A stretch of DNA of 64,000 nt from Desulfomicrobium sp. (GTDB taxonomy: Bacteria; Desulfobacterota; Desulfovibrionia; Desulfovibrionales; Desulfomicrobiaceae): assembly GCA_040768745.1 (NCBI GenBank), contig JAXGMI010000002.1, forward strand, positions 160,001 to 224,000. The letters run 5' to 3'. The notes under the pieces are model-generated. The model did no database searches. It was given only the letters and a program-made list of their open reading frames with translations, and was not told where the DNA came from. This document shows positions 7,160 to 61,753 of this stretch, piece by piece. Position 1 is the stretch's first letter. Every line of letters begins with the position of its first letter. The translations under genes and the position numbers were made by a program.

Positions 7160-8485
7160 ATGAATATCTGCATTGTCGGCACGGGGTATGTTGGCCTTGT
7201 GTCTGCCGCGTGTTTCGCTGAAATGGGCAACACCGTGACATGTGTGGACATCAATCCGGAAGTGATCGCCAGGCTCAAAAAAGGCGAGGTCCATATTTAC
7301 GAGCCAGGACTGGAAGAGTTGGTCCGTCGCAACGCCAAAGAGGGACGGTTGGCGTTTACCACGGACCTGGCGGAGGGCATGCAGGACACCCTTTTTGTGT
7401 TCTGCTGTGTGGGAACTCCAGAAGGGGAGAATGGCACAGCTGACCTGCGTCACGTCAAGCAGGTGGCCAGCGAGGTGGGCAAAATCATTACCGGTTACAC
7501 GATTTTCGTGGACAAATCCACGGTGCCCGTCGGAACGGCCGACGCGGTGCGTGCCATTATCGAGGCCGAACTCAGCCAGCGCGGAGTGCAGGTGGAGTTT
7601 GACGTGGTCTCCAATCCGGAATTTCTGAAGGAAGGTGACGCGGTCAATGATTTCATGAAGCCTGACCGCGTGGTGGTGGGCACGGACAACGTGCGCACGG
7701 CCGAACTGCTGCGGACCCTATATTCCCCGTATGCCCGCAGTCGGGAAAAGCTGATCGTCATGGGCGTGCGCAGCGCTGAAATGACGAAATACGCGGCAAA
7801 TTGCATGCTGGCCACAAAAATTTCCTTCATCAACGAGATCGCCAATATTTGTGAACGGGTCGGGGCGGATGTGCGCGATGTGCGCCACGGTATCGGAGCT
7901 GACCACCGCATTGGCTATCAATTCATATACCCTGGTGTGGGTTATGGAGGATCGTGCTTCCCCAAGGATGTAAAGGCGTTGATCGGCACTGCCAAGGTCG
8001 CGGGCTATGATCCGCAGCTCCTGTCCGCCGTTGACGAGGTCAATGATCGGCAGAAGATGGTCATCGCCCACAAGATCGAGGCATATTTCAACCAGCAGGG
8101 AGGGGTGGGCGGCAAAACGTTGTCCCTGTGGGGGCTGGCATTCAAGGCCAACACGGATGACATGCGCGAGGCCCCTTCCCTGGCCATGATCCAGCGCTTG
8201 ACAGCCTTGGGCATGCGCATACGTGCGTTTGATCCAGCGGCCGGGGAAAATGCACGACGCATGCTGGCCAAAAATCATCTGGTGGAGATCTGCAACGATC
8301 AGTACGCCGCCTTAGACGGCGCTGAAGCCCTGGCCGTGGTCACCGAATGGAATCAGTTCCGAAATCCCGACTTCGGCAGGGTCAAAAAAGCCCTCAAGGC
8401 CCCTGTCCTGTTTGACGGGCGAAATCTGTATGCTCCCGCTCTCATGGCTGCCGAAGGGTTCGCCTATTTCTGCGTAGGCCGCTGA
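7160..8485 (+). CDS. ugd: UDP-glucose 6-dehydrogenase
   Basis: GTGYVGL, SNPEFLKEG, GYGGSCFPKD, GLAFKANTDDMRE. Confidence 0.95.
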   Translation: MNICIVGTGYVGLVSAACFAEMGNTVTCVDINPEVIARLKKGEVHIYEPGLEELVRRNAKEGRLAFTTDLAEGMQDTLFVFCCVGTPEGENGTADLRHVKQVASEVGKIITGYTIFVDKSTVPVGTADAVRAIIEAELSQRGVQVEFDVVSNPEFLKEGDAVNDFMKPDRVVVGTDNVRTAELLRTLYSPYARSREKLIVMGVRSAEMTKYAANCMLATKISFINEIANICERVGADVRDVRHGIGADHRIGYQFIYPGVGYGGSCFPKDVKALIGTAKVAGYDPQLLSAVDEVNDRQKMVIAHKIEAYFNQQGGVGGKTLSLWGLAFKANTDDMREAPSLAMIQRLTALGMRIRAFDPAAGENARRMLAKNHLVEICNDQYAALDGAEALAVVTEWNQFRNPDFGRVKKALKAPVLFDGRNLYAPALMAAEGFAYFCVGR

Positions 8486-10204: not shown

Positions 10205-10939
10205 GGGTCATGACTAGAACAGCGGATAACAAATCTGCTAGGATCGAGTCATGGCAAGGGTTAATAAGTACGCAAATCGTTCAAAAATTTCAGAGGCCAA
10301 ATTCAGGCAATTCTTGAAGCTCTTTTCCTTTGATCTGGATGCATCCCAGATCGCCCTGGTGACTGGCCTAAACAGAAATACCGTGAACAGGTATCTCATG
10401 GCCTTGCGCCAACGAATCGCTGAGTACTGCGAGCGACAAGCCCCAGTTCTCGGGGAAATCGAAGTTGATGAAAGCTACTTCGGGCCTCGCCGAGTCAAAG
10501 GACTCCGAGGTCGTGGCGCAAGCAGTAAAACCATTGTGTTTGGCATCTTCAAGCGCCAAGGCCAAGTCTATACCGAGATCGTGCCTGATTGCAGCCGTGC
10601 CACACTTCAGGCGGTTATCCGAGGTCGAGTCAGCGTCGAAAGCGTCATCCATTCCGATGGATGGCGCGGCTATAACGGCCTGGTGGATATAGGGTACCAG
10701 AAGCATTTCAGGGTCAACCACGGAGACAATGAATTTGCCAATGAACGTAGCCATATCAATGGCATAGAAAGCTTTTGGGGCTATTCGAAAACTCGCCTTG
10801 CCAAGTTCAGAGGTGTCAGCAAGGTAACCTTTTTCTTGCATTTGAAAGATGCGAATTTCGATTTAACAATAGGGGCCAGAACATCTATAAAGTCCTGCTC
10901 AAAATCATCAGGACAAACCCGCTGTTCTAGTCATGACCC
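10205..10939 (+). mobile_element. IS1595-family (IS1016-like) insertion sequence, 735 bp
   Basis: 21-bp perfect terminal IRs GGGTCATGACTAGAACAGCGG; 8-bp direct repeat AAAATAAT at 10197-10204 and 10940-10947. Confidence 0.95.
10251..10930 (+). pseudogene. IS1595-family transposase with a 3' frameshift
   Basis: EVDESYFG, HSDGW and HINGIESFW are intact. One base is missing near 10849; the shifted frame restores CEFRFNNRGQNIYKVLLKIIRTNPLF*. Confidence 0.8.
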
Positions 10940-11052
10940 AAAATAATTTAGTCCATGACTCTGATTTCGTCCACAATATCTTGCAGAGAAAAAATATCGG
11001 ACCTGCCCAGGGGCTGGCTGGAGTGGAAGGCCCTTGATGTTCACATCTTGGA

Positions 11053-13009
11053 CAGGAGTTTCGAAAGTTTCTGGCCAAATGAATCGATTATCTCCAACAA
11101 TACAGCATATAGCTTTTGATTTTCTGTAAGACCCCACGCTCGACTTCATAGCCGAACGCAGCCAGGACCCTGGCCTGATCCGGCGTTGGCTCCTCGATCA
11201 TCCGCCATGCCTTTTCCTTCTCTCCGTTCCAGCACAGGCACGAATGCAGATTACGCATGAGGTCCATGGTCCGCTGCGCGGTCATATGGATGCCGGCGTC
11301 TTCCAGCTTCAGCTCGATCAGGCGCAGATAGGCCAAGGCTACGATGCAGCTCAGGAAATGGCACCTGATTTTCGAATCGGTCCAGTGCCGTATCGGGAAC
11401 ATGCTGACCAGGTCATCGTCCTTGGTCTGACGGAACGCCTGTTCCACGATGTATCTGTCCAGGCTGGCCTGGACGATCTCGTCCGTGCTCCAATCGGCGT
11501 GGTCGGTAATGAGGATGTTCTTGCCGAACCTGTCGATATGCCGGCTGATGCGGTAGTAGTTCTTGCGGAAACCCAGGATGGTCTGCCCGTCCTTGCGTTC
11601 AAAGGTCAGGTCGTACAGGTCCTTGGGCAGATGCAGGTCTTCGCAAACCTGTTCATACCGTTCCCGCACCTTGGCTTCCTGTCTCCAGCCCCGGGCATCC
11701 TCCCGGACCTTGCCCCGGATTTCGTACAGCGCGGCCTGGAGCTTTTGCAGCTTGGCTTCGAAGGCATATCGCTGCTTGGTCGCCGTGAGCGGGTTGTACG
11801 TCACGACGACGGTGCGTTCCCGGCCCCAGTATTCTCCGGTCGTGCGCCAGGCCGACAGGAGATCGTCCTCGCGGCCCTGGGCCTTGAGTTCCCGGTTGTG
11901 TACAGTCTCGACGGCCGAGAACTGGTCACGTCCGGCATGAATGAGTTCTTCGGCGAAATATGGGGAATACGTGGTGATGAAGTGGGCGCCGTCCGTGGCG
12001 TCAATGGCGCAGATGTTCTCCGGAGAGTTCATGCCCTTGTCGAAGACGATGGTCACGTCCTTTTGTCCGCAACCCTGCATTGTCGCGCAAACTTCGTCGA
12101 TGATCGACTGGAACAAGCGTGAATCATGTCGGTTGCCTTCGTATTCGCGGTAAAAGAACGGCAGCCGGGTTTGCCTGTCGACCAGCAGGGCCAGCCCGAC
12201 CTGCCTGGGCCAGTCCCGTCCTTCCTTGTTCTTGCCGCGTTTGGCCAGTTCCGACTCGGTATCGCTGGCCATGAACGTGAAGTAGTTGGTGGTGTCGAAC
12301 AGGAAGCATCCCGAGGTCGAAGGCCGCAGTTCCGCAATCCTGGCAAAGAGCTTCTGGGCGATGTCGCGCAGATGCTTCTCCTCCACCAATCCCCATTTGC
12401 GCCAATAGCCATCTGAATCCAGCGCCTGGATATCGGCGGCTCGAATGGACTGGATGGCCGTATGGGCGAACCATTCCGGCAGCGCCCGTTTGGACGTGGC
12501 GTCGACCATGCGGTTGAAGGCGGCGTAGAGAAAGTACTCACCGACGCTTGGCCCGGAATCCTTGGATTTCTGCGGGACGATCCCGTCAATGATCCCGGTC
12601 ACGCCGACCATCTTTTCGATCTCGTTTGCCAGCCACAACGCGCCGAACTCCTGGACCTGAATGCGACTCAGGTCCGTAGACTTCTGCCCAGTGACCAGGC
12701 TGAGAATCTTTTCCACTGTGCCGAGGTAGACCTGATTCACAACCTTGGGCTTGCCGTTCACACGGGCAATCTCGCGGATGTAGAAGTAGGGTCTTCCGTT
12801 TTTCATTTTCTTATGGAGGTGCGCCATGTCTCGGCCATACCATAAGGGTCTTATACATGCAATAAAAATCGTTCTTTTTTGGTGAAAAATCAGCAAGTTG
12901 TGTCGTGGAAAAACGGGAAAAGAAGAGGGTCTTACAGCAAATATAAAGATAATAGCCTGGAATTATGAAGAAAATAGACAAGGTTCAGGAGAATTTTTCG
13001 AAACTCCTG
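11053..13009 (-). mobile_element. IS1634-family insertion sequence (~1.96 kb)
   Basis: IRs CAGGAGTTTCGAAA at 11053-11066 and 12996-13009 bracket the transposase; no target duplication seen. Confidence 0.85.
11088..12827 (-). CDS. IS1634-family DDE transposase
   Basis: MAHLHKKMKNGRPYFYIRE..RVNGKPKV N-terminus; FDTT, VFDKGM, VEQAFR and PIRHWTD motifs. Confidence 0.92.
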   Translation of the reverse strand: MAHLHKKMKNGRPYFYIREIARVNGKPKVVNQVYLGTVEKILSLVTGQKSTDLSRIQVQEFGALWLANEIEKMVGVTGIIDGIVPQKSKDSGPSVGEYFLYAAFNRMVDATSKRALPEWFAHTAIQSIRAADIQALDSDGYWRKWGLVEEKHLRDIAQKLFARIAELRPSTSGCFLFDTTNYFTFMASDTESELAKRGKNKEGRDWPRQVGLALLVDRQTRLPFFYREYEGNRHDSRLFQSIIDEVCATMQGCGQKDVTIVFDKGMNSPENICAIDATDGAHFITTYSPYFAEELIHAGRDQFSAVETVHNRELKAQGREDDLLSAWRTTGEYWGRERTVVVTYNPLTATKQRYAFEAKLQKLQAALYEIRGKVREDARGWRQEAKVRERYEQVCEDLHLPKDLYDLTFERKDGQTILGFRKNYYRISRHIDRFGKNILITDHADWSTDEIVQASLDRYIVEQAFRQTKDDDLVSMFPIRHWTDSKIRCHFLSCIVALAYLRLIELKLEDAGIHMTAQRTMDLMRNLHSCLCWNGEKEKAWRMIEEPTPDQARVLAAFGYEVERGVLQKIKSYMLYCWR

Positions 13010-50267: not shown

Positions 50268-51002
50268 CTAAGCCTTGTTTCTGGATGCAGGGCCGAAGAG
50301 CTTGGCGAACATGGCCTTGCGGTTCATGAGGCCAGGCAGTGTGGCTGAGGCCACGGCGAAGTCGTGATAGGATTTGGGCGGCATCTGGTACAGGTAGATG
50401 ACCCGGACCATGTCGGCATCGCCCAAGGTGGCTTCCGGATACTTCTTCTGGACTTCGGCCAGCCTCTTTTCGGCCAGGGCCAGCATCTCTTCCCGATCAC
50501 CGAAGTTCATGGCCCCGGTGGGACACGACTGCACGCAGGCCGGTTTGAGGCCGTTCTGCACGCGATCCAGGCACATGGTGCACTTGGTCATGACCTTGGT
50601 GGCCGCGTCCTGACGCGGAATGTTGTACGGGCAGGCCTCGCGGATTTCGTCGAACTCCGGCAAATCCTTGGTTTTTTCCGTGAAGATGACGGCACCGGTG
50701 GCCTCGTCATGGATGATGGCCTTGTCGTCATAGGCGTCGGCGGTCATCTTGCAGGGAGGTTCGGTGCAGTGCCGGCACTGCTCGGGGAAGAACAGCCACG
50801 CGGCCATGAAGCCCTTGTCGTCGGCCACTTCCTTCATGTGCACGGTTTTGTAGGTAATGGCCGAGACGTCCATGGGATTCTGGTGGGAACCATGGTTTCT
50901 GGTCTCTTCGGCCGGGAGTTTGTTCCACTGTTTGCAGGCCACCTGGCAGCCGCGGCAGGCCGTGCATTTGGTCAGATCGACGAAGAATGATTTTCCTGAC
51001 AT
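50268..51002 (-). CDS. fdhB: Formate dehydrogenase beta (Fe-S) subunit
   Basis: CTACRGCQVACKQW, CRHC..PPC, CPY.IP, KCTMC.DR....PACVQSCP. Confidence 0.95.
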   Translation of the reverse strand: MSGKSFFVDLTKCTACRGCQVACKQWNKLPAEETRNHGSHQNPMDVSAITYKTVHMKEVADDKGFMAAWLFFPEQCRHCTEPPCKMTADAYDDKAIIHDEATGAVIFTEKTKDLPEFDEIREACPYNIPRQDAATKVMTKCTMCLDRVQNGLKPACVQSCPTGAMNFGDREEMLALAEKRLAEVQKKYPEATLGDADMVRVIYLYQMPPKSYHDFAVASATLPGLMNRKAMFAKLFGPASRNKA

Positions 51003-51013
51003 GTCGGCTCTCC

Positions 51014-54000
51014 TTACGCTTTCTTCACGTTGACCATGAAGGCCTTGGTTTCCGGGATACCCGTGTTAGGATCACCGACAGCTGGGGTCAGCAGGTTGGC
51101 CGCATCGCCGCCATCCTTGGGCCAGACCCAGCCGAAGTGCCATGGAATGCCCACGACATGGACCGGGTTCCCCATTACTTCGAAGGGCTTGAAACGTTTG
51201 GTGACAATGGCGATGGCCCAGAGTTTGCCGCGCAGGTTCTCCAGAATGACCTTGTCGCCGTTCTTGATGCCCTTGAGCTCGGCCAATTCCTCGCTCATTT
51301 CGCAGAACATCTGGGGCTGGGCTTCCGTCAGCCAGGGCAGCCAGCGGGTCAAAACACCCGTCTGCCAGTGCTCCGTGACCCGGTAGGTGGTGCAGACAAA
51401 GGGGAAGCGGGGGTCGCAGACCGTGCGCTTGTAGGCTTCGTCGGCAAACTGCAGAGCCGTGGGGTTGTTCAGCTGCTTGGAGAAGGGATGCTCGGTGACC
51501 GGGCATTCCAACGGCTCGTAGTATTCCGGGAACGGGCCGTCGTTGAGGCCGGGCCCGTAGAGTGCGCCCAAGCCATGCTGCTGCATGATGAATGGGTAGA
51601 TCGTGCCGGCATCGCCGCCGCCGTCAACGATGTCGATGAGCCATTTCTTGTTGGCTGCATCCCAGGCCAGCACAGGCTTGTTCGGCGCCCAGGGCTTGCC
51701 GTTCATGTCCACTGCGGCCCGGTTGTAGATGATGCGGCGGTTGACCGGCCAGGACCAGGTCCAGTTGGGGAACAGGCCAATCTTTTCCTGTTCCGGGGTC
51801 TGGGTCTTGTCACGGCGGGCGGCCATGTTGCCTTTGGCCGTGTAGGACCCGCTGTAGATCCAGTTGCCGGAGCAGGTGGAGCCGTCGTCCTTCAGGAACA
51901 CAAAGCTGGCGAGCTGGGTGCCGGCCTTCATGGTCGTTTCCGTTCCGTCAGCAGCCTTCACCACCGTGTCTTTCAGGTAGTAGCCGTTGATCAACTTGGC
52001 CACCTTGTGCGGGTCGAAGACATGTCCGTCACCCCAGTCGCCGACGTTGAGGCCGAGAACGGGTTCAGGGAAGGCGCCCTTTTCCTTTTCGTACAGTTCG
52101 CGGATCTTCAATGCCAGCTCGTAGATGATGTCGCCGTCAGGTTTGCTCTCACCCATGGGGGCGGGGCCTGGGTAGCGCCACTGCATCCAGCGGCCGGAGT
52201 TGGAGATGGATCCTTCCTTTTCCACGGACACGGCGCAGGGCAGGAAGAAGACTTCTGTCTTGATCTGCTTGGGGTCCATGCCCGGTCCCTTCCAGAAAGA
52301 GCCGGTCTCGTTTTCGAAGATGTTGACGTTGACCATCCAGTCCAGGTTGGCCAGGGCCTGACGGGTCTTGTTGGAGTCGGCGCCGCTGGCGGCCGGATTC
52401 ATGCCCCAGGCAAAGAAGCCCTTGAACTGGCCTTTGTGCATCTTGTCGAAGAGCACGAGCCAGGAGGCGTTCTGGCCGTCGTCGAGTTTCGGCATCCATT
52501 CGTAGGCCTTGGCGGGCTCGATGTCCTTGTACAGGGACTTGCACAGGCTGGCCATGTATTTGGGCTGATTTTTCTTCCAGTTCAGGCTCTTGGGATCCTT
52601 GCTGACCGGCGAGATGGACTTGATGTAGTCCTCGTAGGTGGCCAAACTTGCTCTGGGCGTGGGCAGATAGCCCGGGATGATGTGGAAGAGCAGGGCCTGG
52701 TCCGTGGAGCCCTGGACGTTGGATTCGCCGCGCAGGGCGTTGACGCCGCCGCCGGCCACGCCCATGTTGCCCAGGAGCAGCTGGATGATGCTCATGGCCC
52801 GGATGTTCTGCACGCCGACAGTGTGCTGGGTCCAGCCCATGGCGTACAGGATGGTACCGGCCTTGTCGGGCTTGCCCGTGGCGCTGTATGCTTTGTAGAA
52901 TGCCAACAGCTTATCTTCCGGTGAACCGGAAATGGCAGACACCTTCTTGATGTCGTAACGGTCGTAGTGCTTCTTCAGGAGCTGGTACACGCAGCGAGGA
53001 TCCTGCAGGGTCATGTCCCGCTTGGGCACCCCGTTCTCATCCATCTCGAAGGCCCAGGATTTCTTGTCGTACTTGCGGGCTGCCTGGTCAAAACCCGAGA
53101 ACAGGCCGTCCTTGAAGTCGAAATCCTTGGAAACAAGGAACGATGCATTGGTGTAGCTGAGAACGTACTCTTTCTGGATCAGGTCATTGTCCAGAATGTA
53201 CTTGATCATGCCGCCCAGGACGCCGATGTCGGAGCCTGAACGCAGGGGAACGTAGAGATCGGATTTGGAGGAGGTGCGGGTGTAGCGCGGGTCCACATGA
53301 ATGACCATGCCGCCCTTTTCCTGCGCCCTGGTGACCCATTTCCAGCAGATGGGATGGTTTTCGGCAGCGTTGCTGCCCATTACGAGAATACAGTCACTGT
53401 TCTTGAAATCGATCCAGTGATTGGTCATTGCGCCGCGTCCGAACGACTCTGCCAGAGCCGCAACAGTCGCGCTGTGTCAAATACGGGCCTGATGCTCTAT
53501 GTAGGTTAACCCCAGACTGCGGAGAAATGCCTGGTAGATCCAGCATTCCTCGTTGTCCATGGCGGCCGAGCCACACGAGGCGATGGCTTCGGTGCGGTTG
53601 ACAACCTGTCCTTTGGCATTGCTGCCGGTGAAGGACGCGTCACGGACACTCTTCACGCGTTTGGCGATTTCTTCCAATGCCCATTCCCAGCTCTTCTCTT
53701 CCCATTTGTCGCTGTTGGGGGCGCGGTACTGGACTTTGGTGACGCGTTTGGGATTCTCGGCCAGCTGAAAAGTGGCCGCGCCTTTGGCGCAAAGAGCGCC
53801 TTCGTTGATGGGATGGTCCGGGTCGCCTTCGATGTTGATGGCGCGTTTGGTGGCTTCGTCCGTGGTGACGATGAGTCCGCAGCCCACGGAACAGTAGCAG
53901 CAGACCGATGTGGTTTCTTTGCCTTTGCGCAGACTCATGAGCTGCGCGTGGGCCTTGGTCGGGGCCAGGTCAAACCCAAGGCCTCCGAAGGCCGTGACCG

Positions 54001-54049
54001 CGGTAGCCGCAGCCGTGAGTTTGACGAATTCTCTTCTTCCCAGTTTCAT
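51014..54049 (-). CDS. fdhA: Periplasmic Mo/W formate dehydrogenase alpha subunit, selenocysteine at codon 191
   Basis: Tat signal RREFVK; CCYCSVGC; in-frame TGA at 53477-53479 in EHQARI-U-HSATV; the frame continues to 51014 (1011 aa). Confidence 0.96.
53428..53470 (-). promoter_or_regulatory. Bacterial SECIS element
   Basis: Hairpin GCGGCTCT-GGC-AGAGTCGT shortly 3' of the UGA. Confidence 0.8.
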
Positions 54050-54362
54050 GCCGTTCCTCCTGACAATGGTTCTGGTTTTACCTGCCACGGATTTCCCGGC
54101 CCAGGCGGATGCAAAACCGCCTGCCAACCGGGAGGGGGATTTCTGAGGCGGGTCGCCACAGATACTGATTGACGTTCATCAGCGTAGGGCGCCTGCGGAA
54201 AACCCGCCCAAGATCAAAGCCGAGTCCGGAAAAGGGGAACATGCATTCCGGCGAAAGGGTTTCGCCCTGGCTTGCCGAAGGAAGTTGATTCTTCAGTACC
54301 TTATCCGAACATCGCATGCTGCGGTGTATGAATCAAAAAAAAGGAAATGCGCAAGGAGAAGG

Positions 54363-55223
54363 TTAATCCTCAAAGTCCGGCACCAGATCACAAAGATATT
54401 TGGCCAGGATAGGAAAGATGTCTTGCGTTCTGTGGTTATATCTGAACTCCAGCTCCTTGATGTAGAGTGGAAAATTGCGGGGCGAGATGCCCTTCAGCCT
54501 CCGGAACCATTCCTTGGAGTAGGACCAGAACCCCTTGGATGAGTCGATGAAAAGCCCTTTGTCCGCATGCTTGATGTTGTACGTGGCAGAGAGGCGGCTC
54601 CCGCCGACAAGGAGGGCTGAATACTGTTTAAATTGATCAGTATAAATGATTTTGCCGAGGCTTGCAGTCTTCAGATGAAAGTTCATTTTGAAGTGCACGA
54701 TGTTGTCTTCGTCCAGTTCGGGGATGAGGTCGGCAAACACATGCGGACCGCGTTCGACAATGCCGAAGACAGGCATGCGTCCTCCGACCTTGGAGCTGAC
54801 ATCGAGGTGGAATTTTCCGGACTTGCCGAAGCCCAGACCTTCAATGGAGCGGATAATGAGGGAGGCGTCCAGGGAGTGTGCCAGGATGGCCATGCGCAAG
54901 GTGGTTACTGATTTGTAGGCGGTGTTGTAGGATACGGACAACTGTTCGGCCATGCGGCCGGTGGGCACCTCAAGTTCAAAGAGTTTGATGAGTCGCAGCC
55001 ATTGCTGGCAGGTGATGTTTCCGTTGTTGATGAAACGCTGGCTGAAGTCGTGAAACGTATAGGCGCAACGCCCACAACGCCGCCGCCCACCCTGCAGGGT
55101 GTAGATTCTGCGGGACCGGCATTTAGGGCAAAATCTTTGATGGTTTTTCCAGCAAAAATGCAACAAAAATTTTTTTGCTGTATTTTCATTTTTAACAATT
55201 TTTTCAAAAGATTGTAGATCCAT
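54363..55223 (-). CDS. IS1595-transposase-derived protein with degenerate catalytic residues
   Basis: Zn ribbon CPKC..CGRC, HTH, PVFGI, IYTD, FWSYSK and YIKELEFRYNHR retained; EVDE motif absent; NGIE replaced by DSSK; no IRs seen. Confidence 0.85.
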   Translation of the reverse strand: MDLQSFEKIVKNENTAKKFLLHFCWKNHQRFCPKCRSRRIYTLQGGRRRCGRCAYTFHDFSQRFINNGNITCQQWLRLIKLFELEVPTGRMAEQLSVSYNTAYKSVTTLRMAILAHSLDASLIIRSIEGLGFGKSGKFHLDVSSKVGGRMPVFGIVERGPHVFADLIPELDEDNIVHFKMNFHLKTASLGKIIYTDQFKQYSALLVGGSRLSATYNIKHADKGLFIDSSKGFWSYSKEWFRRLKGISPRNFPLYIKELEFRYNHRTQDIFPILAKYLCDLVPDFED

Positions 55224-55455
55224 TTGTGCTATTATTCAGTGTAAAAATTTGAGTATTAATCTAAAAATTCTGAAATGTGTTTTTTTCGATTAGCCACAAA
55301 CCATCAGGGTTTTATTATGTCAGAATTGATATAATCATCGTGTGCTCAAATATTCCAATTCATGGTTTGACACAAAATAGTCTGTTTGCAGCCTGTAATC
55401 AACTCCCGAAGTGCATCCGCAGCGGAATGCTATCCCGTGCACAAGGAGCAAAAGG

Positions 55456-56703
55456 ATGCACGTCTTCCAAGGAGCCCGGTCGGTGCAATTATACGATTAC
55501 CTTTTTTTGCTCTTCAGCCTTGTGTTCCTCAGTTCGTGCAGAGATGCGGACGTGCAGATCCCCATGTCTCAACTAGGGATCGGGGTGAACAGCTCCGAGG
55601 TCGTTTTTGGATCGTCCCTGGCCCTGCAGGGACATGCCGGGTATCTCGGCCAGGAGACATTGCGCGGAGCCATGAGTTACCTCCAGCACGTCAATGATCG
55701 CGGCGGAGTGCATGGTCGGACCGTCCGGCTGATCGCCCGGGATGATTCCTACGACCCTCCAAAATGCCTGCAAAATACCCAGAAATTTTTAATCGAAGAC
55801 CAGGTGTTTGGGCTGTTCAGCTTCGTAGGCACCCCGACAGCGGTCAAAATTCTGCCCCTGGTGGAGGAGGCCGAGGTGCCTCTTTTAGGCATGTTCACAG
55901 GTGCCAATGCCTTGCGCGAGCCCTTCACGTCCAATCTCATCAATGTGCGCGCTTCCTATTACCAGGAAACAGATGCCGCGGTGCAGCACATGGTCAGGGA
56001 TCTGCATCTGACCCGCATCGCCGTTTTCTACCAATACGACGCTTACGGATTCGACGGCTTGATCGGCACAGAGCTAGCCCTGAAACGTTTCGGCTTGGAG
56101 CCCGTGGCCCGTGGAAGTTACGTGCGCGGCACCCAGGACATCGGAGAGGGCTTTGATCGCATCCGGGAGGCTGGAGCAGAGGCAGTGTTCATGATTGGTA
56201 CCTCCGATCCCTGCGCAAATTTCATTCGCAAATCCATGGAGTCGGGCTATGATCCCATTTTCTATATGGTGTCCTTTGTCGGCGCCAAGGAATTGGCCCG
56301 CAACCTCTTTGGAACGGGTACCAGCAACGCCAATGTGCTGATGTCCCAGGTCGTTCCGCCGCCGATCATGCCGGACGGGAAGGTTACGGAAAGCGCCGAG
56401 GAGTTTGTCCGCCTGCTGGGAAAGTACTTTCCCGGGGAGGAGCCCAATTTTGTGGGCTTCGAGGGCTACATCAACGCCAAGGTTCTGGTCGAAGCGTTGC
56501 ACAGGGCGGGTCGCGATCTGACCAGACAATCCTTCCTGGGCGCCATCAGCTCCATGACCGATTTTTCCCTGGGCAAAGATGTAAGCCTGTCGTTTGGACC
56601 TGCGGACAATCAGGGCATGGACAAGGTGTACTTCACCCGTCTGCATGACGGGAGGTTCGTCCTCGTCGAAGACTGGAAGCGACTGCCCCAGGGGCGGCAA
56701 TGA
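55456..56703 (+). CDS. Periplasmic ligand-binding lipoprotein (LivK-like), probable sensor partner
   Basis: Lipobox LSSC; GGVHGR, DDSYDP, VGTPT, NVRASY..E; coupled to the kinase gene with no permease nearby. Start uncertain. Confidence 0.85.
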   Translation: MHVFQGARSVQLYDYLFLLFSLVFLSSCRDADVQIPMSQLGIGVNSSEVVFGSSLALQGHAGYLGQETLRGAMSYLQHVNDRGGVHGRTVRLIARDDSYDPPKCLQNTQKFLIEDQVFGLFSFVGTPTAVKILPLVEEAEVPLLGMFTGANALREPFTSNLINVRASYYQETDAAVQHMVRDLHLTRIAVFYQYDAYGFDGLIGTELALKRFGLEPVARGSYVRGTQDIGEGFDRIREAGAEAVFMIGTSDPCANFIRKSMESGYDPIFYMVSFVGAKELARNLFGTGTSNANVLMSQVVPPPIMPDGKVTESAEEFVRLLGKYFPGEEPNFVGFEGYINAKVLVEALHRAGRDLTRQSFLGAISSMTDFSLGKDVSLSFGPADNQGMDKVYFTRLHDGRFVLVEDWKRLPQGRQ

Positions 56704-58694
56704 AACCGTATGCCCGCATTTCCCTCAAGAACAAGATCTTTGTCTCCATTCTTGCGGTCATTTTGGTCATCAGTATAACCATCGCGCTTTTGGCGCGCTG
56801 GATCCTCATTTCAGGTCTGAACAAGGAACTGGAGCTGCGTGGTGTGGCCGTGGCTTCCTCCATCGCCGAGCGTGGAACCGGGTTTGTCCTGGATAAGAAC
56901 TCTCCTGAACTGCTGAGCCTGATTTTTGACGAGGCCCGATTGAGGGAGCGCCAGCATCTGATCAACTATATTTTCGTGCTGGATCGCAACGACCAGGTGC
57001 TGTCCCATACCTTCAGCGTGCCCTTTCCGGCGGCCCTGGCCCTGGCCAACCCCATCCCGGAAGGGAAGGAGCAAAGCGTCTACCTTGTGGAGCATGGGCA
57101 TCATACCTCTTACGATATCGCGGTGCCCATGAACGAAGGCCTGTACCGCATCGGGAGCGTGCATGTCGGTTTGAGCAAGGAACACATCGACATGCTGGTG
57201 GCCAAGTTGCGATTCATGTTCCTGGGCTTTATCTCAGCGGTCGTCATCATCATTTTCTATGTCAGCCTTCGTATTTCCCGCTATATCACCAGCCCTATCG
57301 CGCGACTGACCGCCATCTCGGATGAACTGAGTCGTGGAAATTTCGACGTGAACATGGGCATGGGCAGAGGCCTGGACTGGGCCGTGATCAACTGCCCTGC
57401 CTACAAGGATACGAACATGCCCTGTTGGCATTTCGACGAACAAGCCAGAGTGAACCGCGATGCCGAGAGAAATACCGGCCAGGTCTGCTCTACATGTCTG
57501 TTCTACCGGAAGCGGGAGGGGGACGAGGTCATCCAGTTGGCCGATTCATTCATGAACATGGTCTGGTCTATCAGACTCTATCGCAAGCGCTTGCAAGAAT
57601 CGGAAATGAAGTACCGGTCCCTGTTCGATTCCGGACCGGATCCGATCTTTGTTGTCGATTGCGCAACAGGCACGGTGCTGGATGCAAATCCCCGGGCAGA
57701 GGAAACCTATGGGTATGCCAGAAGCGAACTGGTTGGGTTGCCATTTTCGAGACTCGCCCAGGACAATGTGCGGGAGAGCCTGGCCTCCCTGGATGAGGCA
57801 TCCACGCCGACGGGTTGTGTGTACTACCCGAAGGTTCTGCACTACAAAAAGGGGGATCAGCCGTTCTATGTGAATATGCATGCCTGTCCCATCAGTTACG
57901 GCAAGACTCTCTCAGTCATCGTGGCCGTGACCGATATCACCGAAATGATGGAAAAGGATGCCCAATTGATACAGGCCGCAAAGATGAAGACCCTGGGAGA
58001 AATGAGCGCGGGCATCGCACATGAGATCAATCAGCCCCTGAACGCCATCAAAATGGGCAGTGAATTCCTGAACCTGCTGATCGAGCAGAATCGTGAACTG
58101 ACCGAAACCCAGGTCCGGGATATGGTCAATGTGATCAGTCAGCAGGTGGACAGGGCCTCGGACATCATCAACAACCTGCGGGCCTTTGGAAAAAAATCAG
58201 GAATTGTCCTGGAGCGGGTGCACATGAACGATCCCATCCGCGGGGTGCTGTCCATCATTGGCCGTCAGTTTTCTCTCCAGCGCATCACAATCCGTCTTGA
58301 ACTTGCCGAAGCGTTGCCGACCGTCTTCGGGCATAACAACCGTCTGCAGCAAGTCTTCTTCAACCTGCTCAACAACGCCCGTGACGCAATCCAGGAGAAA
58401 ATGGAAAGTGAGCCCGCCCTGAGGGGGGATATCCTGATCAAAACGTATGCCGAAGCAGGTCGGGTTTTCGTCTCCTTTGCCGACAATGGGGCTGGAATTC
58501 CCGAAAACGTCCGCAACAAGATATTCGAGCCGTTTTTCACCACCAAGCAGACGGGAAAAGGCATGGGACTGGGGCTGGCCATCACCTATGGCATTGTCCG
58601 GGATTATGGTGGGACCATCACGATTGACAGCTGTCCAGGCCAGGGCACCACCTTTGTGTTGAGCTTCCCGGGTGTTGACGAGACAGACGGATAA
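56700..58694 (+). CDS. Membrane sensor histidine kinase (HAMP with Cys-rich insert, PAS, HisKA, HATPase)
   Basis: Two TM helices; [35 protein letters not shown]. Confidence 0.95.
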
Positions 58695-58740: not shown

Positions 58741-59457
58741 ATGACACACGAAAAAATACTGGTCATTGATGATGAAAAGCCAACCCTCAAGATGTTCAGG
58801 CTTTTCCTGGAGGTGTATGGCTTTGAGATCATGACGGCCGAGTCAGGAGAAGAGGGGTTGAAGGTTTTCGAGCGGGAGAGACCGGATATTGTGCTGACCG
58901 ATATCAGGATGCCCGGGATGGGCGGCATTGAGGTGCTGCAGGAAATCAAACGACGTTCACCCGCAACTGAGGTCATTGTCATCACAGGGCATGGGGACAT
59001 GGACCTCGCCATCCAGGCCCTCAACCTCGATGCGGCGGATTTCATCAACAAGCCAATCCAGCGTCAGAATCTGGAGGAAGGTTTGATCCGGGCCAGGGTG
59101 CGGCTGCAATTGGCCCGCAGCCGGCAAAAAGAAGTCAGCCTCAGAAAGGTCGGCGGTGCCTTGGTCATCGATATTCATGGCCGTTTCGGTTCACACAGCG
59201 AACCGTACCTGCGCGAAGTGTACTCCAAGGCTGTGGACTCCCGCACACGACGTATCATTCTCAATTTTGACCCCAATACATCCATCAATGGGGCTGGGAT
59301 TGCCATTTTGACGCAGCTGTTCATGGACAGTGAAAGGGCTGGCATGGAAATGGTCATGGCTGGGCTGTCAGACAATTTCCGCATGGTATTCGGCATGGTG
59401 GGATTGAGTCAACTGGCTGAGATGCATGACACTTTGGAGCAAGCACTGAATCCTTGA
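58741..59457 (+). CDS. Response regulator, REC + STAS (anti-anti-sigma-like) domain
   Basis: LVIDDE, TDIRMPGM, ITGHG, FINKP; C-terminal IILNF....SINGAGIAIL STAS pattern. Confidence 0.9.
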   Translation: MTHEKILVIDDEKPTLKMFRLFLEVYGFEIMTAESGEEGLKVFERERPDIVLTDIRMPGMGGIEVLQEIKRRSPATEVIVITGHGDMDLAIQALNLDAADFINKPIQRQNLEEGLIRARVRLQLARSRQKEVSLRKVGGALVIDIHGRFGSHSEPYLREVYSKAVDSRTRRIILNFDPNTSINGAGIAILTQLFMDSERAGMEMVMAGLSDNFRMVFGMVGLSQLAEMHDTLEQALNP

Positions 59458-59545: not shown

Positions 59546-60130
59546 CTACAGCACGTGGACCTCGCTGTTGTCCAATTTGCGCAGGTCATGAGGGTAGTTG
59601 ACGTTGAAGAAAAATTTGCCGTCATTCTCCGCATAGGTAATTGTATGGCGCAAGGATGGGGGGATGAGTCGGCTCAATTTGAAGACTCCCCGGGCCACAC
59701 CCTGTTCGAGATGAGGAAGAGCCCCGTCTTCGTAGATGGCGACCAAGGCCTCGATAAACCCCGTGCCCCCTTGTTCCCATGTGGTCATCACGCAGTGGGG
59801 AGGGCGCTTGGCGTGGGCCTGCAGGAGCTGTCGCACAACGCTGTCTTCCATGAATGGCAGGTCGCAGGCCAGCACAAGCAGCGGCCCACCCAGGCGCCTG
59901 AGGGCAGTGATGATGCCGCCCACCGGTCCCATCCGCTCCGTCGCATCAACAATGACCGGCAGGGGCAACGGCATGGTTTCCGGGTGCCTGCAGGAGATAT
60001 AGACCTCTTCGCAATGCCGGCCCAGAAGTGCTGCCGAGCGTTCCAAAAGGGTCTGTCCTCCATGTAGGACTGCAGTTTTGTCTTGCCCCAGGCGGGAGGA
60101 TTGTCCCCCTGCCAGCACGACTCCTCTCAT
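59546..60130 (-). CDS. mobA: Molybdenum cofactor guanylyltransferase
   Basis: VLAGGQSSRLG.DK, GP.GGI, ACDLPF, FFNVN.P.D. Confidence 0.93.
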   Translation of the reverse strand: MRGVVLAGGQSSRLGQDKTAVLHGGQTLLERSAALLGRHCEEVYISCRHPETMPLPLPVIVDATERMGPVGGIITALRRLGGPLLVLACDLPFMEDSVVRQLLQAHAKRPPHCVMTTWEQGGTGFIEALVAIYEDGALPHLEQGVARGVFKLSRLIPPSLRHTITYAENDGKFFFNVNYPHDLRKLDNSEVHVL

Positions 60131-60293
60131 GTTCTCCCCGGTATGTCAGTTTCGTTGGCCTGTCCTTGCCGGAGACGTCACAGGGAATCCACCGGCATGA
60201 ACGCACCCCTGCGAAAGTGACGCTGCAAAGGACCGTCTTGGAACGCATGTGGTGCCCAGTTCGGTAGGCAGAAGGTTCCTGTTTACGCCCCTG

Positions 60294-61184
60294 TCAGAAT
60301 CCCCAGGCTGAGAGAGTCGGCCGCTTGTATTTTTTCTCCCGGGCCAGGACGTCAAGTCGCAGGGACTCCAGATCGTCCACCAGAGGCAGGGCCCTTCGGT
60401 CAAGGTTCCTGAAATCCGTTGTCTTGATATACATTTTACACGTTTTGCAGGCATTGACGCGCAGTCCCGGCTCTTCAGGACTGTCGTAATATTCGAGTCT
60501 GCCCGTGTCTGTTTCGAGACAGAAGGGGCACTGGAGCCGGGTGGCGCGGTATTCGGCATGACAGAATCCACAGATGTTGTAGCGAAAGCCTTCCTTTTCC
60601 CGCAGATCTGACATGATGGGCATGCTGCCGCACAGGGGGCAGTGTCCGTGGCCCCATGATTTGTTCAGGTCAGTCCGGGCTCCAAGCAGCTCGGCGCAGC
60701 GTTCCAAGGACGGAGTCATGGCTGCCTGCACAAGCATGGGCAGGGTCCGGGGGGCACTCGGGGTGGCAGTGCTCCACTTGGCGAAAAAGTTTTCGTCGCC
60801 GTCTAGATGGGCCTGCATGGCCTCGTCCAGATTGAGTGAGGGCTCTTTCAACGACCTGTCAATGGACGAAGCCGCTTCTTTCAAGGCCGGAGTGCTGGCC
60901 GCAAGGAGTTCCAGGAATTGATGGAAAAGACCCACGGTCTGGTCCCGGTCATACGGGAATTTGTTTCGCGGAAGCAGGGGCGCTCCCTGGGCGTGCTGGA
61001 GTGGGTCGGCGATCCCCAGCGTGGAGGCGGATGAAACCTGGGCCTTTTCGCGCGACTCAAGTTGGGCGGAGTATATCTTTTCGACCAGATGGATCAGGTC
61101 TGCGGGCAGAAAACCCCGTTCTTTGCATGCGTTGATCCGCTTGTTGAGCAATTCCCGTGCATTTCCGGCTGCGAGCATGTGCAT
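60294..61184 (-). CDS. fdhE: Formate dehydrogenase accessory protein
   Basis: CPLCGS.P, CGFC, CPFC, CKTC..YIK. Confidence 0.92.
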   Translation of the reverse strand: MHMLAAGNARELLNKRINACKERGFLPADLIHLVEKIYSAQLESREKAQVSSASTLGIADPLQHAQGAPLLPRNKFPYDRDQTVGLFHQFLELLAASTPALKEAASSIDRSLKEPSLNLDEAMQAHLDGDENFFAKWSTATPSAPRTLPMLVQAAMTPSLERCAELLGARTDLNKSWGHGHCPLCGSMPIMSDLREKEGFRYNICGFCHAEYRATRLQCPFCLETDTGRLEYYDSPEEPGLRVNACKTCKMYIKTTDFRNLDRRALPLVDDLESLRLDVLAREKKYKRPTLSAWGF

Positions 61185-61339: not shown

Positions 61340-61753
61340 ATGACTGACTTTGCACAGGATGTAAGCCTGACCTTGCGTCTCCACTTCTGGCTTGAAAAGG
61401 ATCAGAAGATCTTCCTTGGCATTGGGCGGGCCTTGCTTTTGGAGAAAATAGAGGAGCACGGATCACTCCGGCAGGCCGCCACGGACATGAAAATGTCCTA
61501 CCGGGCAGCCTGGGGTAAACTCAAGGCGGCCGAAGAGAGTGTCGGCAGGCCGCTGGTGCAGAAGGTCAAAGGGCGGGGCCAGCGTTATGAATTGACGCCC
61601 GTGGGACGCCAACTGTCCCGCCAATTTCTGCAGCTCCAGGAGGACATCGAAACATTTGCGCGGACCAAAGCCCAGGAACTTTTCGGTGAAAAGGTGCAGT
61701 ACTACGCTGAGACCTACCCCGAAGGAAAAACACCACCCCTGAAGCCGGAGTAG
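61340..61753 (+). CDS. ModE-family winged-helix regulator (no TOBE domain)
   Basis: G.GRA.LL..I...GSLRQAA..M.MSYRAAWGKL; 137 aa. Confidence 0.88.
   Translation: MTDFAQDVSLTLRLHFWLEKDQKIFLGIGRALLLEKIEEHGSLRQAATDMKMSYRAAWGKLKAAEESVGRPLVQKVKGRGQRYELTPVGRQLSRQFLQLQEDIETFARTKAQELFGEKVQYYAETYPEGKTPPLKPE

Follow-up and report, generated by a model that had tools for sequence, protein, structure and literature searches.

The question raised by this locus is whether a gene that resembles the transposase of an insertion sequence (IS), and that lies upstream of the formate dehydrogenase (FDH) genes fdhAB, is a piece of mobile DNA or a regulator that now belongs to the host. The gene lies in a 64,000-nucleotide stretch of DNA from Desulfomicrobium sp. 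(contig JAXGMI010000002.1, positions 160,001 to 224,000), referred to here as the window, and is listed with its surroundings in Table 1. Most likely, the gene stands outside the mobile IS1595 family and works like a transposase-derived transcription factor, and the more specific reading that an immobile derivative binds the ancestral terminal repeat, activates the FDH module, and is controlled by a response regulator composed of receiver and STAS domains (REC-STAS) is judged fairly probable. FdhAB is a highly expressed periplasmic formate dehydrogenase in Desulfovibrio-type bacteria (PMC4215793); if true, the reading would name its missing regulator and supply the output of a response regulator lacking a DNA-binding domain.

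The encoded protein consists of a C4 zinc ribbon (C32, C35, C50, and C53), a helix-turn-helix (HTH; residues ∼72–115) and a degenerate RNase H-like domain. Pfam places Zn_ribbon_IS1595 at residues 11–56 and DDE_Tnp_IS1595 at residues 144–263, both above cut-off (zinc ribbon PF12760, 40.6 bits against 25.4; DDE domain PF12762, 44.5 bits against 27), and the NCBIfam IS1595 transposase model NF033547 scores below its cut-off (52.5 vs. 75). The AlphaFold model is confident (pLDDT 91, pTM 0.90); a Foldseek search with it returned zero matches at E 0.001, and VIA-align gave a top Z of 3.9, its weak HTH, integrase, and transposase rows being uninformative about the fold. A preliminary description of the locus had reported an intact 286-codon open reading frame (ORF) of IS1595 architecture, on the same strand as fdhAB and divergent from a sensory operon (periplasmic binding protein, histidine kinase, response regulator), all of which is borne out by the ORF itself, the Pfam matches, and the window annotation. 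The gene had also been placed directly upstream of fdhAB; it is upstream and co-oriented, but a 79-codon ORF sits between it and fdhA.

Catalytic residues were compared in an alignment of both paralogues of the window genome with those 116 of the best 120 matches (of 2042) that contain at least 250 aa. In this set, 74 domesticated proteins form one clade (SH-aLRT 100 in a quick tree), and the source clade of IS1595 transposases is ∼45–50% identical to the window protein. The motifs DE[SA]YF and NxLExFW are both present in each of the 44 mobile relatives and both missing from every domesticated protein, all 74 of which carry a four-residue insertion at 177–180 that none of the 44 possesses. The four zinc cysteines are kept in 73–74 of the 74. 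The absence of EVDE from the window protein and its DSSK where NGxE is expected, both reported earlier, are confirmed. The second catalytic Asp (D196) is retained by the window protein and by 65 of the 74 in all, and the aligned Asn column is Asp in 69. The IS1595 copy at 10251, which had served as the yardstick, comes from a distant clade (21% identity), and a frameshift near the C-terminus affects it as well.

The gene behaves as a fixed part of the chromosome. The window genome has one copy and one paralogue (46% identity), which lies beside a second fdhAB cluster; across the order the gene is found in 171 of 301 genomes, with one to four matches each at E 1e-20 and a single copy in 133, and one of the 150 matches listed contains an internal stop. 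Twenty further loci of the genus all have the divergent lipoprotein gene, and fdhA follows in all 19 for which downstream DNA is available. The median ratio of nonsynonymous to synonymous substitution rates (dN/dS) among 20 genus orthologues is 0.084 (187 of 190 pairs), compared with 0.095 for the first 180 codons of fdhA, and the RNase H-like part is the most constrained (0.055). In trees of 30 genomes, 10 of the 13 strong splits of the gene are common to the RpoB tree; the FdhA tree shares 6 of 13. A 40-locus neighborhood sample chosen for diversity comprises 31 loci of the window-gene type, six of the paralogue type, and three diverged copies, and at the 31 the gene is followed by fdhA in 25, accompanied by the sensor operon only in two, by fdhE in two, and located beside topA in two. 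No 8-bp target-site duplication is present at the window gene, whose flanks differ, as had been stated. The true IS1595 element of the window genome, by comparison, exists as six dispersed copies that are 92–100% identical, five of them complete with perfect inverted repeats (IRs). Low copy number, synteny, dN/dS, a single non-catalytic clade, and a largely vertical tree therefore support domestication strongly, and that the gene is a domesticated transposase and a real host gene can be regarded as virtually certain, in agreement with the earlier proposal and with the checks of synteny, copy number, selection, and (for the most part) congruence with the species tree that had been suggested for it; instead of many near-identical copies at unrelated loci, there is one locus per paralogue. 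Among 401 genomes of the phylum, six matches were found outside the order, namely four intact IS elements with full IRs, one truncated IS, and a locus (L329:1486–2331) in which the first catalytic motif has decayed and no IR was found, a possible case of independent decay or domestication.

Although the preliminary description found no terminal IRs, decayed repeats do exist on both sides of the gene and only their outer tips are lost. At 80 loci of catalytic relatives, drawn from many phyla and often several per genome, the element is bounded by IRs of ∼25 bp, the left beginning ∼41 bp before the ATG and the right overlapping the last codons. The two window remnants (Table 1) are 901 bp apart, compared with mostly 890–930 bp in the mobile relatives, and only the right one begins with GG. 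The left remnant occurs at an equivalent position in L034, L036, L039, L048, and L053, and before the window genome's paralogue (paralogue 2). A 13/15 inverted repeat flanks the ORF, its upstream arm varying within the genus; the view that it arose by chance was overturned by the in-register IRs of mobile relatives.

Copies of the repeat are also found at host promoters. A matrix built from 79 IS repeats (IS-only matrix) detects sites in three places: upstream of the gene, at -37 to -41, in several families; in the non-coding DNA between the gene and fdhA; and 90–240 bp ahead of fdhE, at distances from the gene of up to 4 kb. Twenty such host sites conserve IR positions 7–23 (the inner 17 bp) and not positions 1–6, and the tips are likewise unconserved across the genus. 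IS ends have a two-part layout, and conservation of the inner 17 bp without the outer six is what would be expected if the tip that is cut had been lost and the part that is bound had been kept. A host-site matrix trained on those 20 sites, all from families other than that of the window, ranks the three window sites 2, 3, and 8 among ∼6.2 million genome positions; its top match genome-wide (G000:C2:243075, score 19.3) lies just downstream of a response-regulator gene.

At loci outside the training set, a site scoring at least 12 lies within 350 bp of fdhE in 13 of 29 cases (0/29 in the coding control, 1.3% in shuffles; the IS-only matrix gives 6/29 vs. 2.5% in shuffles). For fdhA, with a limit of 700 bp, the count is 16 of 30; tupA is preceded by a site at 4 of 30 loci, and three of these four are repeats of fdhE sites. 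Sites also occur in trans, at 3 of 14 fdhA loci with the gene out of view (L260, L261, and L265), at tupA in L219, and in L066, where a 2.4-kb gene separates the gene from fdhA and the site scores 19.8. At loci from 19 genomes that lack the gene, sites were found in 0/3, 0/16, and 0/14 (0/33 overall). An IR-like match upstream of a molybdate/tungstate ABC operon (G000:C2:845067) was left uncounted; it coincides in part with a ModE-type box and with a plain TTGACA. Judged from these sequence patterns, the IR-derived sites are very probably bound by the transposase-derived protein. The earlier suggestion of an exapted regulator of FDH or of molybdenum/tungsten (Mo/W) cofactor genes is thereby supported as regards FDH genes, IR-derived sites appearing at fdhAB and fdhE promoters in gene-carrying genomes only; the W-versus-Mo role that had also been suggested is less likely as an input of the protein itself (see below).

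The position of the sites relative to promoters is constrained. When a site is read outward, TTG comes next, at +7 to +9; held-out loci supplied 44 sites, of which 16 have a -35-like hexamer beginning at offset 7 and 8 have one at offset 8 (24/44, a gap of 6–7 bp), other offsets hold 0–3 hexamers each, and the flanks of 125 mobile IS ends have no peak. A TTG hexamer at the offset seen in the window recurs both in the genus loci printed and across families. Because the -35 offset is fixed, the site core would lie at about -64 to -48, which is where activators of sigma-70 promoters bind. It is likely, on the strength of this geometry, that the derivative activates sigma-70 promoters of fdhAB and of FDH-maturation genes.

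The counterparts in other strains are DVU0584 of D. vulgaris, a 'transposase, putative' of 873 bp between DVU0583 and DVU0585/0586/fdnG-1 (PMC10102598, supplementary table 5), which confirms the mention of such a gene beside fdhAB in the preliminary description, and Dde_0714 of D. alaskensis G20, a 'transposase' in an equivalent neighborhood (PMC4045070); both are equated with the window gene by annotation and gene order rather than sequence. Both are dispensable according to supplement rows (PMC10102598; PMC4045070), and archived G20 mutants in Dde_0714 exist (JK09116 and JK09886; PMC4045070). In G20 the start of a transcript has been mapped at 733619 (8660 reads; sigma-70 and sigma-54 scores both 0), in the gap that separates Dde_0714 from the small ORF Dde_0715; it precedes Dde_0715 by 22 nt and fdhA by 314 nt (PMC4045070, dataset S3). 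The fdhAB genes thus possess a promoter of their own, located downstream of the transposase gene. L277 shares the gene order and has similar spacing, and a projection onto it, valid only if spacing is conserved, puts the start 7 nt past a -10-like hexamer; a -35-like hexamer stands 18 bp further up.

The REC-STAS regulator encoded in the divergent operon is found in 165 of 301 genomes of the class, and 155 of 157 REC-STAS-positive genomes carry the gene, the 157 being those positives that could be matched to genomes of the first gene search. Genus g11 has neither (0/52 and 0/60), and REC-STAS is kept even where it is far from the gene (G126, G122, G178, and G120). A complex model of the two proteins scores 0.64, against 0.00 for the best of three controls, with at least 88% contact agreement between runs and a partner pLDDT of at least 82; by rough counts from the analysts' own alignments, this mark is reached by 116 of 157 solved complexes and by 2 of 215 mismatched pairs. 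On the derivative, the modeled contacts comprise residues 116–122, 154–169, 177–184, and 196–201, i.e., the former active-site face and the new insertion; on the partner they comprise receiver residues 87–102 (the alpha4-beta5-alpha5 face) and the STAS loop 181–189, and many of the REC-STAS contact residues are invariant in 36 orthologues. Such a contact would account for the dead domain being more strongly conserved than the rest of the protein. As modeled, direct contact between REC-STAS and the derivative is somewhat probable.

Taken together, an IS1595 element would have landed upstream of fdhAB in the Desulfovibrionales ancestor with its right end by the promoter, whereupon decay of the outer IR tips and of two catalytic motifs would have cost it its mobility while zinc ribbon, HTH, and inner IR were retained; copies of the site would have arisen later before fdhE-fdhD-mobA-moaA, sometimes tupA, and, for one paralogue, nrfHA. 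Binding of a ligand by the periplasmic lipoprotein would lead the kinase to phosphorylate REC-STAS, which is predicted to dock on, or release, the derivative at its dead active-site face, and the derivative, at about -64 to -48, would recruit RNA polymerase. That the ligand is formate is a guess, and a doubtful one. The wider proposal of a two-component pathway with a domesticated DDE transposase as its DNA-binding output and a terminal repeat as operator of a regulon for the selenocysteine FDH of sulfate reducers, and with paralogues that took up new duties at a second FDH and at nitrite-reductase genes, is narrowly favored.

Several observations weigh against this reading. Within gene-carrying genomes, no site was found at 16 of 29 fdhE, 14 of 30 fdhA, and 26 of 30 tupA promoters, nor at 11 of the 14 fdhA loci without the gene in view, and the window genome's own fdhE promoter lacks one; at the loci of paralogue 2 examined in the genus, a clear target site was not found. 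Gene-end sites are partly fixed by Val-Pro codons, the right site of the window scores 6.2 on the IS-only matrix, the training sites were themselves selected using the IS matrix, and the counts are not independent because the held-out set includes congeners and repeats (L183/L203; L220 and L231 repeat fdhE sites). The negative control is weakened in that only 3 of the 19 gene-lacking genomes have this FdhA type. In L277 the site next to the -35 hexamer is weak (5.4, ending 6 bp before it) and a strong one (18.8) lies 75 bp further up. Three strong splits of the gene tree, which are deep, conflict with RpoB. G050 and G066 have REC-STAS without the gene, and G083 keeps the gene without orthologous fdhA, fdhE, tupA, or REC-STAS; its locus (L320) has a C-terminally extended gene frame beside a distant REC-STAS-like gene (34%). 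Finally, Dde_0714 mutants of G20 have no pooled formate phenotype (two rows), and pooled assays mask fdhA as well, fdhA mutants being without a pooled phenotype (PMC4215793).

Of the alternatives, one accepts binding to the same IR-derived sites and takes the protein to be a repressor or DNA-looping factor, or an activator that makes no contact with REC-STAS. Two sites in the divergent region do face each other, downstream of or over likely promoters, and paired sites ∼75 or 23 bp apart are found; moreover, any FDH gene cluster would be expected to co-occur with REC-STAS, in which case co-occurrence would reflect the shared FDH module. A constant gap of 6–7 bp upstream of the -35 hexamer is, however, typical of activators, and the modeled interface passes its controls, uses residues gained on domestication, and concerns a partner that is kept even at a distance from the gene, so that this alternative is considered unlikely.

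A second alternative assigns the sites to another regulator (ModE-like, TaoR/TupR, or TunR type) or to promoter elements, and makes the protein an FDH-maturation chaperone or scaffold. The core of the motif contains TTG(A/G)CA, resembling a -35 or a sigma-54 -24 box, tungstate regulators are known to control tupABC in D. vulgaris (PMC10102598), and the gene is often found inside an fdhE-fdhD-mobA-moaA operon. Against this, the motif and the source IS repeat agree in register at either end of the gene. Of the regulator motifs compared, the ModE-type box has another palindromic sequence, and the mod-operon motif CGGTCACG-N14-CGTGACCG known from the literature is unlike the IR-derived one (PMC545781); a sigma-54 promoter was rejected as the identity of the motif, a TTGC-like -12 element standing at the expected place in only two of 43 sites. 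The conserved DNA-binding domains speak against a chaperone or scaffold, and the alternative as a whole is quite unlikely. It is very improbable that the protein keeps some DNA-cutting or recombination activity, such as inverting or excising DNA between the IR remnants: D196 and the aligned Asp column survive in most of the clade and inverted site pairs exist, but the first catalytic Asp motif and NxLE are lost throughout, the IR tips are gone, gene order is constant in 19 of 19 further genus loci, and the modeled partner would cover the active-site face. An ordinary, old or still mobile IS that merely lies beside fdhAB, to which the Pfam transposase domains, the IR remnants, and a GC content of 50% (59% in fdhA) might point, is refuted by the copy, dN/dS, and motif data, with one locus per paralogue, a nearly stop-free set of listed copies, no target duplication, and a true IS1595 in the same genome that is present as six near-identical dispersed copies.

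Table 1. The transposase-derived gene and its surroundings, in window positions.
Feature	Position	Strand	Remark
fdhB	50268..51002	-	Profile matches
fdhA, main proposed target	51014..54049	-	1011 codons, Tat signal
Conserved small ORF, 79 codons, first gene of fdhAB transcript	54078..54317	-	Between gene and fdhA
-35-like hexamer TTGCGC, predicted promoter of small ORF and fdhAB	54349..54354	-	6 bp from right-IR tip
Right-IR remnant overlapping last codons, proposed operator of small ORF and fdhAB	54361..54385	+	Rank 8 genome-wide
IS1595-derived protein gene, proposed activator	54363..55223	-	Intact ORF, 286 aa
Left-IR remnant 38 bp before start codon, probable autoregulatory site	55237..55261	-	Rank 2 genome-wide
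Palindrome TTATGTC-N6-GACATAA, ModE-box-like	55315..55334		Common to other Mo/W genes of genome
Third IR-like site facing divergent sensor operon, genus-conserved	55351..55375	+	Rank 3 genome-wide
Periplasmic binding lipoprotein (Peripla_BP_6), proposed ligand receptor	55411..56703	+	Likely start 55456
Sensor histidine kinase, sCache-HAMP-PAS-HisKA-HATPase	56700..58694	+	Domain matches
REC-STAS response regulator without DNA-binding domain, predicted partner	58741..59457	+	Domain matches
mobA and fdhE (FDH maturation)	59546..61184	-	Promoter with IR-derived site in many relatives, not in this genome
ModE-like protein, DNA-binding domain only, candidate palindrome binder	61340..61753	+	Profile match

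Beyond the ModE-like HTH gene, on the divergent side of the window gene, lies moeA. The lipoprotein gene is linked to the window gene in 19 of 19 further genus loci that show that side and in many other loci. Codon 191 of fdhA is an in-frame stop, the sole one, and would encode selenocysteine. MauE/DoxX and redoxin (AhpC/TSA) genes repeatedly adjoin the gene and fdhAB (L056:8000–9078; L043:9147–9665; L036), and Dde_0713 of G20 is annotated AhpC/TSA too. Elsewhere in the window, the active-type IS1595 copy at 10205–10940 has perfect 21-bp IRs and its frameshift distinguishes it from four others; a 602-aa DDE_Tnp_1 transposase gene (11088–12896, minus strand) adjoins it, and a similar ORF is found at G000:C1:1833365–1835035.

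The small ORF that heads the fdhAB transcript stays open in 20 of 20 genus loci (dN/dS 0.47) and is without a match in both Pfam and Atlas scans. Its position equals that of DVU0586 in D. vulgaris and Dde_0715 in G20, and the fdh1 operon has been listed as DVU0586-0588 (bioRxiv 2022.01.18.476765). The product contains a PFSGLGFDL motif resembling the h-region of the FdhA Tat signal and a conserved LGREIRGR end; a leader peptide is one conceivable role, and a decoy for the FdhE/Tat machinery another. In the window genome it is possibly leaderless. In three of four runs, metatranscriptome contigs include pieces that span the small ORF together with fdhA, and only short pieces fall within the gene; such contigs cannot reveal level, strand, or start and were kept out of the evidence.

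The ModE-box-like palindrome of the intergenic region also occurs before genes for an aldehyde:ferredoxin oxidoreductase, a Mop-type aldehyde oxidoreductase, the other fdhAB cluster, and paralogue 2 (G000:C1:17035, 17084, 29245, and 760054; C2:655484 and 655574), the genes being named from a reading of their sequences. The palindrome is similar to the ModE site core known from G. sulfurreducens (PMC545781, table 6). As a site of the derivative it was rejected, being ModE-box-like, tracking ModE-like genes, and being present in genomes without the gene, with scores of 12–19 in the gene-lacking loci L158, L160, L162, and L172. By these sequence criteria it is probably bound by a ModE-like protein and not by the transposase derivative, and it marks a Mo/W-enzyme regulon. 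The HTH-only ModE proteins that PMC545781 left unexplained may have their missing site here. If it is so assigned, metal sensing and the transposase-derived input would be separate; since the palindrome covers Mo/W genes and the predicted partner belongs to a periplasmic-ligand two-component system, a W/Mo input through a separate ModE-type box is more likely than one through the derivative.

All six paralogue-type loci of the 40-locus sample lie beside a ModE-like gene and another fdhAB-fdhE. This subfamily (L002, G000:C1:28330–29178; L047, L051, L054, L057, L061, L067, and L364–L379) has also lost D196, and for paralogue 2 the left-IR remnant is kept in 6 of 10 genus loci. At G000:C1:18145–28266 there is a tandem fdhA-fdhB-fdhE duplication whose two FdhE proteins have an identical C-terminal half, pointing to recent duplication or conversion, and genes resembling those for molybdenum storage and molybdate transport lie upstream of it. 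Of the three diverged copies, one adjoins hcp and nrfHA, one adjoins hcp, and one adjoins a nitrite/sulfite reductase-like gene. A third subfamily beside hcp, HcpR-like, and nrfHA genes (L076:7040–7891, L071, L073, and L333) includes in L076 a gene-end IR-derived site at 7872 (11.9), followed by a -35-like hexamer at +7, before nrfH. The gene context suggests that this subfamily has been redeployed to nitrite reduction.

No published description of the domesticated family was found in a search that left most subscription journals and some supplements outside, and a prior description is possible; DVU0581-DVU0585 are absent from the main texts searched, and the portions of PMC3333781 covered have no mention of DVU0581. 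Annotations label genes of this kind as transposases, and such genes are probably either tallied with mobile DNA or overlooked. Because the enzyme, the site, and the source element can all be aligned, the birth of a regulon from an insertion becomes traceable base by base.

Members of the IS1595 family are characterized by a single ORF with DDE_Tnp_IS1595 and an N-terminal zinc ribbon, a DDE motif, IRs starting with GG, and an 8-bp duplication (PMC8101967). The window family resembles their transposases (L078–L157; P0037 and P0070) in whole-length identity of ∼45–50%, in the zinc ribbon-HTH-RNase H-like layout, and in IR sequence and register, whereas it has lost the catalytic motifs, IR tips, target duplication, and mobility, and has gained the four-residue insertion and copies of its site at host promoters. 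Like TldR (PMC10705468), it appears to be a bacterial transcription factor that arose from a transposon protein by active-site decay and acquired new host-gene associations. As described there, TldR derives from TnpB, an RNA-guided nuclease, and represses by means of a guide RNA, the element ends having been lost (PMC10705468). The window protein, in contrast, derives from a DDE transposase, retains the terminal repeat as its apparent operator, is a likely activator, and, by prediction, answers to a two-component system.

TunR, reportedly a recombinase-derived tungstate regulator of Desulfovibrio, is likewise a regulator obtained from a mobile-element-type enzyme, in the same organisms and in related Mo/W biology. 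It differs in combining a tyrosine-recombinase fold with MOP sensor domains and in its motif, the window protein having no sensor domain; the integrase-MOP fusion of Desulfovibrio and its motif have been described (PMC545781). In Pfam and NCBIfam, the 286-aa protein has IS1595 domains only; the integrase or ModE HTH domain combined with a MOP or PBP sensor domain, as expected of TunR, ModE, or TaoR regulators, was not found in it.

Plants and animals offer well-known examples of transcription factors that arose from transposases; a bacterial one derived from a DDE transposase and keeping the terminal repeat as operator was not found in the literature searched. SETMAR, FHY3/FAR1, and ZBED6 are similarly DDE transposases kept as sequence-specific regulators, SETMAR binding the ends of its own transposon, and in the accounts covered they are eukaryotic, belong to other superfamilies, and involve neither sigma-70 geometry nor a phosphorelay. 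REC-STAS response regulators and partner switching of the SpoIIAA/RsbV type provide the remaining comparison. The modeled contact would resemble such switching in its use of the receiver alpha4-beta5-alpha5 face and the conserved STAS loop 181–189, the difference being that the predicted partner is a dead transposase rather than an anti-sigma kinase.

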